A DNA stretch of 64,000 nucleotides from a virus. The notes beneath the pieces are model-generated. The model saw only the letters and a list, made by a program, of their open reading frames with translations. It did no database searches and had not been told where the DNA came from. The translations under genes and the position numbers were made by a program. The DNA lies in IMG/VR virus record IMGVR_UViG_3300033233_000004, positions 1 to 64,000 of that record; one strand, written 5' to 3'. Shown in pieces: positions 18,789-23,626 of the stretch. The stretch's first letter is position 1. Every line of letters begins with the position of its first letter.

Positions 18789-18926
18789 TTACTTCTCCTT
18801 AGAATGACAGGATATACAGATTGTGCCAACAAGATCGTTTGGATGCACTAAGTCTCCACAAAGAGAGCATGTCACCCTTTTGTCCTTGTCAGTATCAATT
18901 ATCGTTGAAACAGTCTTGGTTAACAC
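18789..18926 (-). CDS. Small zinc-finger protein (45 aa, not in ORF track)
   Basis: GTG start; MLTKTVSTIIDTDKDKRVTCSLCGDLVHPNDLVGTICISCHSKEK. Confidence 0.55.
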   Translation of the reverse strand: MLTKTVSTIIDTDKDKRVTCSLCGDLVHPNDLVGTICISCHSKEK

Positions 18927-19002
18927 GGTGTACCTATACCTATGATTACATACAATACTTAGAAAAAAGGATTGATGTTTTATAGTGGGTGTAAGCAGAA
19001 AA

Positions 19003-19034
19003 ACAATAAAAATGGGGCAGTATTAGTGCCCCAT
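19003..19034 (-). terminator. Rho-independent terminator ending the RAMP/guide operon
   Basis: atggggca-N7-tgccccat stem followed by a U-tract on the minus strand. Confidence 0.85.
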
Positions 19035-19083
19035 GCAGGAATCAGGGAATATAAAGAAATGATACCTTTTGAACTAAATTTCA

Positions 19084-19365
19084 ACCGTAACAAACCCGAA
19101 CGTACCGTGCCTTGACTAACCTCGCAGCATCATACAAAACCTAATTTTTGAACTATGAAACACTTTTAGAGCATTTCATAGTTATATAAACCGAACTCTA
19201 CCCCAACGCACCATACCCCAACTTACCATACCGAGTCCTACCTAACCTTATTTTCGAACCATGTAACACCTTTAGAGCATCACATGGTTAATGTAACCAA
19301 ACTCCACCATAACCCAACTTACCACAACGCACCTAAACATAACATACCAAGCCGCGCCTTACCTT
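19084..19365 (-). ncRNA. Downstream guide-like array: three GGY/GTY-NN pentamer tracts (19084-19143, 19190-19249, 19296-19365) and two 33-nt hairpins (19151-19183, 19257-19289)
   Basis: 12, 12 and 14 in-phase pentamers; hairpins have 14-bp stems and a CUAAA loop. Confidence 0.85.
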
Positions 19366-19377
19366 ATGAAAAGAGTC

Positions 19378-19977
19378 TTACACGCTCTTCACGGATACAA
19401 CACTGAATCGTCCATGCTCAGGTCGCCAGTCACCGAGACCAACCACTCTACCAGCTACATCAACGAAACGCTTCACAGCCGCTTCCTCAATGAGGTCAGG
19501 CATAAATGTCACATTGAATGCCAAAGCCCATTCAGCAAACTCAGGACGAGTACGCATAACACTCGACCCCATGTTGACCTTGACTGCCGTGTAGCTCTTA
19601 TTGTTACCCTCGGAATACAGTTTCTTGATGTCCTTGGCACCAGTGTATTCAAGAACCGCATCTGCCTCGACAATGATGCTGGACTTGGCGGTCGTGGCTT
19701 CCTTGGATTTCTTTGCCGCATTCACAAGGGTCGCCTTGAGAACGTAATCTGGAATTACAACTTGTTTCTTGTCATTCAGATACAAACTGGCGAACCATTC
19801 GAGACGACCCATCTCAAGATAGTCCTCGTCCGTCTTGTTCTTCTTTTTAGAAATGGCTTTCATCGCCTTTGATACTTCGGAAAGTGGGTCTTTCAACGCC
19901 ACACCATTGTGAAGAATTAGGCTACTATCGCCCTTGATTTTGAACTGCAATGTTTGTACACCTTTGGCGTTTGCCAT
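19378..19977 (-). CDS. Stand-alone Cas7/RAMP-like protein (Vipr-like), 199 aa
   Basis: Start corrected to ATG 19977 with AAAGGA RBS. RAMP hallmarks: FKIKGDSSLILHN, VVIPDYVLKATLVNAA, RTRPEF..W, and G-rich loop AGRVVGLGDWRPEHGRFSV. Confidence 0.8.
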   Translation of the reverse strand: MANAKGVQTLQFKIKGDSSLILHNGVALKDPLSEVSKAMKAISKKKNKTDEDYLEMGRLEWFASLYLNDKKQVVIPDYVLKATLVNAAKKSKEATTAKSSIIVEADAVLEYTGAKDIKKLYSEGNNKSYTAVKVNMGSSVMRTRPEFAEWALAFNVTFMPDLIEEAAVKRFVDVAGRVVGLGDWRPEHGRFSVVSVKSV

Positions 19978-20060
19978 TGTGATTATTCCTTTGCTTTGTT
20001 CGTGAATCATTGTATCGTTACTGCATGTCGAACGACTTGACCTTTGAAAATAAAAAAGAA

Positions 20061-20367
20061 ACCACACCTTACCGAGCCGAAAAACTACCGCAACTCACCC
20101 TACCGTAACGGGACAAACCGTACCACGCCATATTTTACATCTTGAACCTTGAAGCACCTTTAGAGCACTTCAAGATTGAATTTCAACCATACCTTAACGG
20201 AACAAACCGCATCTCACCACAAACATAACGCACCGAGCCGCACCGTGCCTCGCCATATTTTTTTGAACTCCGACCAGCCTTTAGAACTAATCGGAATTGA
20301 GAAACTTACCGTACCACGACTTAACTTACCGAGCCTAACCCTGACTCACCATATCCGAACCGAACCA
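20061..20367 (-). ncRNA. Upstream guide-like array: three GGY/GTY-NN pentamer tracts (20061-20131, 20186-20256, 20303-20367) and two 33-nt hairpins (20145-20177, 20266-20298)
   Basis: 14, 14 and 13 pentamers (two tracts carry a 1-nt insertion); same hairpin architecture as the downstream array. Confidence 0.85.
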
Positions 20368-20369
20368 AA

Positions 20370-21323
20370 TTACACTCTTTGTGCTTTCTTTTTTCCAACC
20401 ACACTTACCAACGCAGACCCACGCTTCTTTGAACGCAGTGTACGCTTCTGACTCTTCACAGGCGTAGTCTCCACCTTCGTCCGTTCAATAGGACGAAATG
20501 TAAAGCCCTGCCGTGCAAGCATTGGTCGAGCGTACTTCTCGGCAACTTTCCTCAGTTCTTCTGCCTTGCGTTGCTTCATGTCGTCTTCACTCATACCAGT
20601 GTACCCTTGCATCGCTTCCTCGACTTCTCTCGGAATAGAATAGAGAAGTGGTTTGTGTGTAATACCAGTATTGTCCACGGTAATAAGAAGTGCACCAATG
20701 GATACCGTGTTTCCATACCCCATGAACTCGGTAGGATATTCCCAACAACCGTTGTGGATGATACGCACGGCACCATCGAACTTCTCTTCATACCGATGAA
20801 GATGTGCACCAACCAACATAGCTACTGGTTGCATCTCACTGTGACGTGTACGTTGAAACACAATGCGTTGTTCTGTCATAGTATTTCGAGATTTATGCGT
20901 GAAGACTATATCCCCATATGGAGTACCTATTGTTTGTATAACTTTATGATGCTTACCGCCCAATTTTTCAGTTACCTGTCGGTCTGCATCAAAACCCGAC
21001 CCCTTACCATAGTGGTAACCACTACCTGTTACACCGAGAACACGAATCTTTCCACCATAGAGCAATGGCTGAATCAGTCTAACAGCATCAGATACCTGTT
21101 CATCTACGTCAGTCAACCAAAGAGTAGACGAATCTTTGTGAGCATTACCATCGACCATATCTCCAAGTAAGACGATAGTATCAATAATAGGTAATACTAA
21201 TCGAACCATATATTCCCATTGATCTATAGCCCACGTCTGGAATGCATTCATACTTTTATTAGCACGTGAAGCAAGACCGTACTGAGAACCATCATGTATA
21301 TCATTAAGGACGAGAATATTCAT
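20370..21323 (-). CDS. Calcineurin-like metallophosphoesterase
   Basis: NDIH, LGDMVDG, GSGYH, TH, GAHLH motifs; basic C-terminal tail. Confidence 0.8.
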   Translation of the reverse strand: MNILVLNDIHDGSQYGLASRANKSMNAFQTWAIDQWEYMVRLVLPIIDTIVLLGDMVDGNAHKDSSTLWLTDVDEQVSDAVRLIQPLLYGGKIRVLGVTGSGYHYGKGSGFDADRQVTEKLGGKHHKVIQTIGTPYGDIVFTHKSRNTMTEQRIVFQRTRHSEMQPVAMLVGAHLHRYEEKFDGAVRIIHNGCWEYPTEFMGYGNTVSIGALLITVDNTGITHKPLLYSIPREVEEAMQGYTGMSEDDMKQRKAEELRKVAEKYARPMLARQGFTFRPIERTKVETTPVKSQKRTLRSKKRGSALVSVVGKKKAQRV

Positions 21324-21347: not shown

Positions 21348-21376
21348 AAGATACAACAAAAAAACTTGAAAGTCAA
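21348..21376 (-). promoter_or_regulatory. Sigma70-type promoter
   Basis: TTGACT-17 nt-TATCTT; twin of 34849-34877. Confidence 0.7.
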
Positions 21377-21453: not shown

Positions 21454-22005
21454 TCATTGCCACTCAACTTCGCCAACTACTTGAACAGCAGAACGTGTTA
21501 ATAACCTATTAAAGTACAATGGCACGTTAGCGATTATACAAAGTGGACTTTCTAAAGAGGTAAAATAGTTCAACACTTTTTCTCTATGTATATCTTGAAA
21601 TGCCGAATACACAATTTCTTGTAATGTTCCAAAACTCAAAAATGCAGCCATAGGAACTCTGTCATTTCGCTGTAAATAATGTGATTGTTTGGCAAAAGAT
21701 TCCATCAAAGGCTGGTATGCTATGATAGCCTTAAGCATTTTATCAATGTCAGTATTCGAAATACTTACTTCTTCATCAAGCTCTTGTACAAATTCACACA
21801 TCTTGCACAAAGCACATATCGAAGCATTCACCACATTGACAGGCTCATGCATATTTTCAGGCAAGCTTGGCTCCCACTCAGCAGTACTCTTTCCCACATA
21901 CTCACGAGGCATGGTCTTGAAGTAAGGACAAAAAGAAGGTGCAACTATGAGACCTTTAATTGCATCGGCAACTTCCAACTTAACTTTTGGCATACTATTC
22001 TCCAC
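21454..22005 (-). CDS. Hypothetical protein
   Basis: 183 aa, overlaps the groEL stop. Confidence 0.65.
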   Translation of the reverse strand: MENSMPKVKLEVADAIKGLIVAPSFCPYFKTMPREYVGKSTAEWEPSLPENMHEPVNVVNASICALCKMCEFVQELDEEVSISNTDIDKMLKAIIAYQPLMESFAKQSHYLQRNDRVPMAAFLSFGTLQEIVYSAFQDIHREKVLNYFTSLESPLCIIANVPLYFNRLLTRSAVQVVGEVEWQ

Positions 22006-23626
22006 CCATAGCTGGCATTCTTAATTTATAGTACATCTCGTTTCTCACATCTGTAATAGTTGCCTCCGTCGTCAATACAGTTCCTGCCACTGATGCTGCA
22101 TTTTCCAAAGCGATACGTACAACCTTTTTCGGATCAACAACACCATCTGCAATTAGATTAGAGAATCGTTCTGTAGCAGAGTTGTAACCAAAATCGTCAG
22201 CCCCTTTTAGTACTTTATCAAAAATAGACCTTGGTTCCAAACCAGCATTCTCAAGAATCTGTGTAAAAGGAGTCTTAAGAACTTTGAATACCAGTTCGGC
22301 ACCTTGTACTTGGTCATCATTAGGAAACCCCAAAGTTTCCTCGACAGCTTGACCACAACGAATCAAAGCCAATCCACCACCTGCAACAATACCCTCCTCA
22401 ATAGCAGCTTTAGTAGCATTCAATGCATCTTCTACAGAGTCCTTACGTTCCTTCAATTCACTCTCGGAACCAGCACCAACTCGTATTGAACCAACGCCAC
22501 CAGCCAATTTACTTAAACGCTCCTGCAATTTCTCTCTATCATAATCAGAAGTCACAGTAGCAAGTTGTGCTTGAATTTCACCCTTACGTTGGTCGAGACT
22601 TTCCTTTGTTCCAGCCCCACCACTAATGATAGTGTTTTCTTTGGTAATCAAAACTCTGGTAGCAGTACCCAAGTCTTGCATTGTCAATGTTTCCAAATTA
22701 CGATTCAATTCAGCAGCAATAAATGTTGCTCCTGTTAATACAGCTATGTCCTGTAAAATATCCTTGCGACGGTCACCAAAACCGGGAGCTTTTACTGCGC
22801 ATACTTTAATTCTTCCTTGCATCTTGTTAATTACAAGACCAGTTAATGCATCGCCATCTACATTATCGGAAATAATGACTAACGACCTACCTGCTTGTGT
22901 CACACGTTCCAAAAGAGGAACTAATGTCTTAAGACTACTAATAGTACGGTCATATACAAGAATGTACGGATTCTCAAAATCAGCTTCACCCTTCGGTGTA
23001 TTCACAAAATACGGCGAAACCCATCCTCGGTCGAATTGCATACCTTCTACGGTATGAATGGTAGTTTCACTGGTCTTGGAATCATCAATAGTAATAGTAC
23101 CTAATTTACCAACCTTCTGCATTGCTTCAGCAATCAAATTACCGATAGAACGATCATTGTTTGCAGCAATCGTACCGATGTTCGATATAGTTTGAACATC
23201 CTCGTAAGCAACAGGTATACGTATTTTTTCAAGATGAGCAACGATTGATTTCACCGCTTTCTCAATACCCTTACGCAGTTCCATAGGGTTGGCTCCATTG
23301 GAAACCAATCGAAAGCCTTCCTGTACCATTGCTTGAGTTAGAATGGTCGCTGTCGTAGTTCCATCACCAGCTTGTTCTGCGGTACGAGTAGCTGCCTGAA
23401 GAACCATTTGAGCACCAAGTTGTTCCACAGGGTCGGCAAGGTCTATAGACCGAGCAACTGTTACACCATCTTTTGTCACATGAGGAACACCCATCATTCT
23501 CTCAATAACAACATTACGACCCTGCGGCCCTAATGTCACTTTCACAGCAGCAGCCACCTTATCTATGCCAGATTTTAATGCTATACGGGCATCTCCGGCA
23601 TACTTGATGTCTTTTTCGATAATCAT
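21995..23626 (-). CDS. groEL: Chaperonin GroEL
   Basis: VKVTLGPQGRNV, TKDGVTVA, GDGTTTAT, EGMQFDRG, KAPGFGDRRK. Confidence 0.97.
   Translation of the reverse strand: MIIEKDIKYAGDARIALKSGIDKVAAAVKVTLGPQGRNVVIERMMGVPHVTKDGVTVARSIDLADPVEQLGAQMVLQAATRTAEQAGDGTTTATILTQAMVQEGFRLVSNGANPMELRKGIEKAVKSIVAHLEKIRIPVAYEDVQTISNIGTIAANNDRSIGNLIAEAMQKVGKLGTITIDDSKTSETTIHTVEGMQFDRGWVSPYFVNTPKGEADFENPYILVYDRTISSLKTLVPLLERVTQAGRSLVIISDNVDGDALTGLVINKMQGRIKVCAVKAPGFGDRRKDILQDIAVLTGATFIAAELNRNLETLTMQDLGTATRVLITKENTIISGGAGTKESLDQRKGEIQAQLATVTSDYDREKLQERLSKLAGGVGSIRVGAGSESELKERKDSVEDALNATKAAIEEGIVAGGGLALIRCGQAVEETLGFPNDDQVQGAELVFKVLKTPFTQILENAGLEPRSIFDKVLKGADDFGYNSATERFSNLIADGVVDPKKVVRIALENAASVAGTVLTTEATITDVRNEMYYKLRMPAMGGE

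Follow-up and report, generated by a model that had tools for sequence, protein, structure and literature searches.

Four shape-conserved hairpins as probable 3' tails of guide RNAs in a VIPR locus of a 172-kb phage

Introduction

The DNA analysed here, a 64,000-nucleotide window comprising positions 1 to 64,000 of IMG/VR record IMGVR_UViG_3300033233_000004, belongs to a complete 171,836-bp viral genome with terminal repeats. On either side of one small gene it carries, among tracts of degenerate pentamers, four short hairpins which are identical in length and loop and different in stem sequence. What are these hairpins for, and to which of the tracts beside them do they belong?

The product of that gene directs attention to VIPR (Viral Interference Programmable Repeat), a CRISPR-like system of phage DNA silencing first described in 2026 (bioRxiv 10.64898/2026.04.26.720920,.720927, 2026.10.15.759431). 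It is composed of a small RAMP-like protein, Vipr, with an RRM core, a G-loop and a thumb, and of guide RNAs (vrRNAs) which consist of 9–16 YNNGG repeats and then a structured 3' tail capping the RNA. Recognition of double-stranded DNA is by the NN dinucleotides, one base being skipped per unit, and the authors liken the tail to the repeat handle which caps a CRISPR spacer (bioRxiv 10.64898/2026.04.26.720920,.720927). The vrRNAs of SUSP1 measure roughly 100 nt by sRNA-seq, and their structured element stays on the RNP, where it is visible in cryo-EM maps. Internal degeneracy of the repeats is frequent in real VIPR systems, and guides match their own genome no better than shuffled ones do (bioRxiv 10.64898/2026.04.26.720920,.720927). 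The layouts described in one report include staggered, hammerhead-ribozyme-interspersed and single-vrRNA arrays (bioRxiv 10.64898/2026.04.26.720920, figs S18-S20). VIPR has been classified into seven types, and in the SUSP1 family solo vrRNAs have been described on rival elements, some of them directed against the junction between repeats and tail in other VIPR loci (2026 VIPR preprints).

Structure of the hairpins

A first-pass annotation of this DNA had described four 33-nt stem-loops, each with a 14-bp stem, a CUAAA loop and a 3' end GUU followed by C(A/G)A. When both strands of the window were scanned for a CUAAA loop closed by a stem of at least six pairs, G-U allowed, exactly these four were recovered: H1 (19151–19183), H2 (19257–19289), H3 (20145–20177) and H4 (20266–20298). 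All lie on the minus strand, which is also that of vipr and of the pentamer tracts; each is 33 nt long, with 14 bp in the stem, and ends in GUU, after which comes CAA or CGA. In the complete genome the loop-core pattern occurs four times, in H1–H4 only.

Folding with RNAfold, which had been proposed as a check, predicts the full 14-bp hairpin for all four minus-strand sequences, as both the minimum free energy and the centroid structure. The energies range from -13.6 to -15.9 kcal/mol, with z-scores of -5.1 to -7.6 and 0 of 200 shuffles as stable, and the hairpins are kept when the entire upstream and downstream non-coding blocks are folded. Their plus-strand versions reach only -5.3 to -9.3 kcal/mol, with the inner stems broken.

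Aligned with their flanks, H1–H4 share 18 invariant columns out of 45 and have standard pairs in 56 of 56 stem cells. Seven of the 14 stem pairs have changed on both sides and four on one side; the remaining three never vary. The observed pairing or covariation score, which derives from four paralogous copies in one genome, was reached by none of 500 shuffles of the four-way alignment, and sliding the partners by 1–3 columns lowers the pairing to 30–45%. By the pair-type table, G-U accounts for 15 of the 56 stem pairs; since each of these would turn into an A-C mismatch on the plus strand, they fix the functional strand of the hairpins as the minus. The earlier claims that the stems differ while pairing is kept, that every non-Watson-Crick pair is a G-U of the minus strand, and that compensatory covariation assigns the functional RNA to that strand are thus all borne out. 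The 3' flank, consisting of C, A or G, A and then an A-rich run rather than a run of U, is better conserved than the 5' flank.

The annotation had also suggested a covariance-model search for further copies. A model of the four hairpins (R1) recovered H1–H4, and these were its only hits in the window together with 86 Vipr loci (490 kb); nor was any hairpin found with it in the whole 194-kb genome of the closest relative (L011 / G001). An IUPAC pattern of the invariant hairpin positions had 0 matches in IMG/VR. Its single match in the JGI metagenomes (L091) is a G+C-rich stem-loop which lacks a pentamer tract and comes after what looks like a phage structural gene; it was taken as chance. Rfam returned nothing, either for the whole window at gathering thresholds or for 18900–20500 at E<=1, so that the hairpins belong to none of the known families of ribozymes, CRISPR repeats or sRNAs. 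No tRNA or tmRNA was found, and the locus had no blastn match among 50,697 phage records.

Pentamer tracts and transcription

Phase analysis and unit parsing delimit six tracts on the minus strand, each made up of 12–14 pentamers with GGY in phase. A density of at least five in-phase GGY per 60 nt is reached nowhere else in the 171.8-kb genome. Tract A (20301–20366), which begins a few bases past the stop codon of the upstream gene and has no hairpin before it, is made up of 3 + 10 GGY-NN units and leads to H4; tract B (20184–20254), with 7 + 7 units, leads to H3. Tract C (20059–20129), in the vipr leader, has 10 + 4 units and a U-rich run at its end, without a hairpin. Each of these three contains one phase slip of 1 nt. 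Beyond vipr are tract D (19294–19363), with 14 units in a single phase and then H2, tract E (19188–19247), with 12 units in a single phase and then H1, and tract F (19082–19141), whose 12 units are the most degenerate, although several units elsewhere are degenerate too. Alignment to H4 and H3 identifies the sequence just after tract F (19056–19081, minus strand) as a decayed fifth copy of the hairpin, which has suffered a 5-nt deletion in its 5' arm and one change in its loop and has lost its 3' arm; no fold is left. Folding leaves tracts C and F without a working hairpin. With the decayed copy added to the four hairpins, five of the six tracts possess, or formerly possessed, a hairpin 3' of them.

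In tracts A, B, D and E the hairpin begins 4–7 nt past the last called pentamer, at a variable distance of 9–12 nt from the last GGY. The final unit of all six tracts starts with GGUU or GUUU; the first units are more variable than the last, those of B and C being alike. Tract plus hairpin gives predicted lengths of ~97–110 nt, which is consistent with the roughly 100-nt vrRNAs of SUSP1.

A candidate sigma-70-like promoter, recognized by consensus match only (9/12, with a 17-nt spacer), heads the unit at 21348–21376 on the minus strand. The unit is closed at 19012–19034 of the same strand, directly beyond the hairpin remnant of tract F, by an intrinsic terminator possessing an 8-bp G+C-rich stem and then a T run. 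Consensus scans of the minus strand revealed no further promoter-like sites or terminators within the unit apart from one weak terminator-like match, which lies inside the upstream gene (20519–20507). Because a single promoter-like site and a single terminator bracket the unit, and because the hairpins are without U runs, any guides would have to be cut from a long transcript. This presumed transcript also carries two protein genes.

The vipr gene and its neighbor

The gene between H3 and H2 (P0003; 19378–19977, minus strand) specifies a protein of 199 aa. It was matched by phmmer to PDB entry 36pp_D, "SUSP1 Vipr protein" [E 5.3e-20, residues 9–194 on 3–188], at an identity to SUSP1 Vipr of only about 30%, and is a member of phrog_4652 [E 2e-43]. 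The residues H17, D175, R136, Y176 and R177, which contact G1/G2/Y3 in P. fulva, align with H23, D183, R144, W184 and R185 here; the G-loop motif is conserved, and most contact residues are invariant across 27 relatives. An AF2 model of the protein (pLDDT 93.2) finds its best Foldseek matches, in a copy of the PDB predating the VIPR entries, among Csm3/Cas7 with a TM of about 0.5, so that the product models as a small Cas7/Csm3-like RAMP. Its best relatives from isolated phages belong to a P. aeruginosa prophage-like phage (35%) and to Felixounaviruses (30%).

The homology to Vipr, the retained contact residues, the RAMP fold and the six in-phase pentamer tracts together indicate that the locus is, by its sequence, a VIPR system. 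It offers a Vipr protein, pentamer tracts within the range of 9–16 units on the vipr strand, and what appears to be a structured 3' tail, the last with a different fold. PADLOC gave no match for Vipr or its two large neighbors, and no Cas family was matched among eight locus-flanking proteins with Pfam or among three with PADLOC.

Upstream of the tracts, and ending just before tract A, is a co-oriented gene for a 317-aa metallophosphoesterase-like protein with a basic C-terminus (20370–21323, minus strand). Its match to Pfam Metallophos is weak [E 0.0016] and below the cut-off, and against PDB sequences it gave spurious RecA matches only. The gene may be an accessory one (vap-like), but it resembles no vap type described in the portions of the VIPR literature available for comparison. 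A homolog lies upstream of the arrays of L011 (27% identity over 124 aa, pairwise E 4e-5), but this shared position may mean only that the two phage genomes are collinear. Between vipr and the terminator there is no gene, and hence none resembling vap1.

Comparison with other VIPR loci

A query with the single protein returned no relatives; an alignment query returned 434, and 86 loci were surveyed. The closest Vipr, that of L011, is 63% identical, and the tracts of that locus are separated by a short conserved motif of 13 nt. In L010, a Logan assembly with a Vipr of 43% identity, hairpins of similar build follow the tracts and are themselves followed by U runs, while L012, from IMG/VR, has hairpins with GNRA-like tetraloops whose stems differ between copies. 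In the hairpin-bearing relatives, L010, L012 and others, Vipr is 41–47% identical to the protein described here. Tail-less tracts are found just upstream of vipr in L010 and L011 too. Loci of the L010 and L012 type thus resemble the present one in having stem-loops 3' of their arrays, in several copies per locus and with differing stems; they are unlike it in loop sequence, stem length and flanks, and R1 finds none of their hairpins.

A stem of at least 9 bp (9–16 bp) starting no more than 20 nt 3' of an array was present at 49 of 484 arrays and in 41 of 87 loci, the window included (40 of the 86 relatives). Twenty of the relatives' hairpins are found solely 3' of an array and 10 solely 5', which lends weak support to the 3' side. 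With 3' stems in 41 of 87 loci, structured tails are general in VIPR. Their folds are quick to change, and this phage is not alone in having tails that differ within a single locus.

The type II VIPR systems of Escherichia phage SUSP1, of the Felixounavirus clade, and of the P. fulva prophage clade have much in common with this locus: a homologous Vipr, guides of 9–16 GGY-NN units, a structured element directly 3' of the tracts, arrays on both sides of vipr, and phage-encoded, minus-strand non-coding units of roughly 100 nt. The tail of the SUSP1 clade, however, is an invariable pseudoknot of ~40 nt, whereas the one described here is a perfect 33-nt hairpin with a 5-nt loop and a stem which varies between copies. 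The pseudoknot tail of wV8, a phage of the SUSP1 clade, has no sequence in common with H1–H4, and a P. aeruginosa phage has longer compound structures. Two further differences from SUSP1 and P. fulva are that no vap1-like gene follows vipr and that two tracts are tail-less. The other published VIPR layouts too have tracts split by a short RNA element which sets guide boundaries within one transcript; in the present locus the separator is no Rfam ribozyme and the tracts do not overlap.

Function of the hairpins

We propose that the four hairpins are probably the structured 3' tails of four phage vrRNAs, H4 being the proposed tail of the tract A guide, H3 that of B, H2 that of D and H1 that of E. 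Their correspondence to the published tail is suggested by the arrangement itself, with a hairpin after each of four tracts and a decayed copy after a fifth. The first-pass annotation had taken them for capping or delimiting signals playing the part of CRISPR repeats but conserved in shape, and this idea finds support in the homology of Vipr and the layout of the locus. Since the tail of SUSP1 is an invariable pseudoknot and that of this phage a plain and variable hairpin, functional equivalence of the two is assumed. Invariance is limited to the loop, the two terminal A-U pairs and a few positions of the stem, the remainder of which covaries; from this we infer that the tail is probably recognized by its shape and loop, not by the sequence of its stem.

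A pathway may be envisaged in which the whole unit gives rise to one long minus-strand RNA, running from the promoter above the phosphoesterase-like gene to the terminator at 19034–19012. Host endonucleases would cut this RNA in the short A/U-rich linkers beside each hairpin, releasing RNAs of about 97–110 nt, each with 12–14 GGY-NN pentamers and a hairpin. Vipr protomers would then bind one pentamer each to form a filament; the hairpin would mark and cap the 3' end of the filament and shield the RNA from 3' exonucleases, and the NN dinucleotides would read a DNA target by the one-base-skip rule, resulting in silencing. For filament assembly, the capping role and DNA silencing we draw by analogy on the published work with SUSP1 and P. 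fulva; that host RNases cleave the linkers, and that the hairpin is retained on the mature RNA, are suppositions of our own. The variable spacing of 9–12 nt between the last GGY and the hairpin speaks against capping, in that it is unlike a rigid protein-RNA register. Furthermore, since C and F are without a working hairpin, guides must be able to do without a tail, or else C and F do not serve as guides.

The same hairpins also precede four of the six tracts, at a distance of 9–15 nt, and might be read as 5' handles of the tract which comes next (H4 with B, H3 with C, H2 with E and H1 with F), like the crRNA handle before its spacer. The greater conservation of the sequence just 3' of each hairpin would agree with this, as would the 10 hairpins of the relatives which lie only 5' of an array. 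Published vrRNAs, however, have their structured element at the 3' end; tract A, a good tract of 13 units, has no preceding hairpin; and it is difficult to see how the remnant after tract F, with no tract beyond it, could be a 5' handle. The U runs after the hairpins of L010 likewise suggest the end of transcripts, and we consider that a function as 5' handles is quite improbable. Alternatively, the hairpins might do nothing but signal cleavage or separate the tracts, being cut by a double-strand-specific or stem-loop-guided RNase of the host and then discarded, so that the guides themselves would be tail-less. The unit does look polycistronic and would need cutting, two tracts exist without a hairpin, and arrays interspersed with ribozymes, where the separator serves processing, are among the published layouts. 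The invariant loop and the strict length of 14 bp nonetheless suggest a specific recognition beyond that of a cleavage site, and a stem of 14 bp containing several G-U pairs is on the short side for RNase III. In SUSP1, moreover, the cryo-EM maps place the structured element on the RNP, and a role in cleavage only seems to us unlikely.

As stable stem-loops in non-coding DNA the hairpins could also be terminators or attenuators between independently expressed small genes, the more so as the similar hairpins of L010 have U runs next to them. Here it is a C and an A-rich run that come next, the terminator scan calls none of the four, and there are no promoter-like sites between them; such a function is very improbable. 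Fixed-length inverted repeats spaced by variable sequence might, finally, suggest palindromes acting at the level of DNA, as sites for protein binding or recombination, or repeats of CRISPR type served by a Cas6-like enzyme. The 15 of 56 pairs which are G-U on one strand only would be meaningless for duplex DNA and already contradict the former. Regarding the latter, the hairpins bound by Cas6 in type I-E and I-F CRISPR systems, which become the 3' handles of crRNAs, are indeed stem-loops that end each guide and are cut from a long precursor. The present locus is nonetheless not a member of those systems: no Cas6 or other cas gene was found near it, its "spacers" are coded in pentamers, its stems are not identical from copy to copy, and Rfam matched no CRISPR repeat. 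A CRISPR array was rejected on these same grounds, namely repeats which are not identical, intervening sequence with pentamer periodicity and no Cas match near the locus. Palindromes or CRISPR-type repeats can therefore be given next to no credence.

If the hairpins are indeed 3' tails, one may ask whether the divergence of their stems within the locus was selected rather than the result of drift, in which case nothing would be read of the tail but its 14-bp helix and CUAAA loop. We think this doubtful, as we do the related idea that the tail-less tract C, in the leader of vipr, could be an autoregulatory site bound by Vipr rather than a guide. Were the stems so selected, the phage would possess four functional tails without a long identical run, which could avoid recombinational deletion between repeats flanking vipr, and the diverged stems could deny rival phages a conserved repeat-tail junction as a vrRNA target.

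Guide targets

Under the one-base-skip rule, the best matches of the guides within their own genome were equal to those of shuffled guides, and no match was found in the 87 fetched loci (those bearing Vipr and L091). Eleven units of guide E, searched exactly, had 0 matches in IMG/VR. For the 11 central units of guide D, 596 Gb of prokaryote genomes contain a single exact match (22/22 bases), with 24/28 bases agreeing over 14 units. It is situated in the MAG of an uncultured Saprospiraceae (Bacteroidota), on a contig of 1.9 kb, after a gene of 353 aa and in a short, dubious ORF whose third codon positions coincide with the skipped bases. By our own estimate about 0.07–0.3 such matches would be expected by chance. 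The site is absent from 200 other Saprospiraceae genomes, and guide E has 0 matches in the MAG at up to 3 mismatches; we regard the site as a lead only. The chaperonin of this genome is closest to those of Bacteroides phages, with which the Bacteroidota affiliation of the guide D site agrees.

Significance

VIPR itself, the tails of its guides and their CRISPR-like capping were already known; new to this locus is a tail with a shape of its own. Studies of the VIPR guide tail have so far dealt with one clade, where it is an invariant pseudoknot. The present locus amounts to a natural experiment, in that four working-looking tails keep helix length, loop and end pairs while 11 of 14 stem pairs change, and such variation points to the features of the tail that matter. 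In the engineering of guides, a hairpin of 33 nt would make a simpler cap than a pseudoknot does. The range of VIPR now also takes in a 172-kb phage, whose guides appear to be embedded in one operon-like transcript needing processing. Of interest here are a tail formed by a plain hairpin whose stems have diverged, the absence of a tail from two tracts, one of them in the vipr leader, and the operon-like embedding. The picture of VIPR function is left unchanged, and to it this phage adds a well-documented variant.

Tails and tracts in related loci

Tails of the same shape and different sequence, as in the 33-nt hairpins proposed to end four of the guide tracts here, have a second example in the related Vipr locus L012, on a 146-kb contig of an IMG/VR phage (Vipr 44% identical). 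At least five arrays there (L012 3742–4551) each precede a hairpin in which an 11-bp stem is closed by a GNRA-like tetraloop, and the stems vary among copies through paired changes. In the closest relative, L011, a conserved 13-nt motif lies between its four upstream tracts (1937–2310), and together with the last pentamer it could form at most a 4–5-bp mini-hairpin. Since this motif, with its mini-hairpin only, is the separator in L011, the tail architecture has wholly changed between Vipr proteins which are 63% identical.

Tract C (20059–20129, minus strand) is a pentamer tract without a tail, situated in the vipr leader, its 3' end being a U-rich run immediately ahead of the vipr ribosome-binding site. 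Two relatives, L010 (2923–2977) and L011 (about 2372–2420), have a tail-less leader tract in the same arrangement. Rather than a guide, tract C could be an autoregulatory site bound by Vipr.

One extra base occurs mid-tract in three of the six tracts, at 20351 (tract A), 20219 (tract B) and 20079 (tract C), all on the minus strand, and moves the GGY phase by one. How a filament with one protomer per pentamer would accommodate these slips is not obvious; each of the three tracts might work as two shorter guides.

Flanking genes

Ahead of the arrays lies a gene (20370–21323, minus strand) for a metallophosphoesterase-like protein whose C-terminus is strongly basic. L011 carries a counterpart (804–1613; 27% identity, E 4e-5), also ahead of its arrays. 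The gene might encode an accessory or processing enzyme, or its position in the two phages is merely shared gene order. Directly past the intrinsic terminator of the unit is a 45-aa ORF (18789–18926, minus strand) with weak zinc-finger-like matches (PHD_4, E 0.005), which may specify a small DNA-binding protein.

Possible target and host

Under the rule that the NN dinucleotides read DNA with one base skipped per unit, the 11 units at the centre of guide D (tract D) gave a single exact match in 596 Gb, at L092 458–499 (contig CAYUZA010000390.1, from an uncultured Saprospiraceae MAG); the full guide agrees with this site at 24 of 28 bases. We regard it as a weak lead to target or host. The window also encodes a GroEL-like chaperonin (21995–23626, minus strand; Pfam Cpn60_TCP1, E 1e-71), whose best phage matches, Bacteroides phages DAC16–DAC23 (52% identity), hint at a host among the Bacteroidota.
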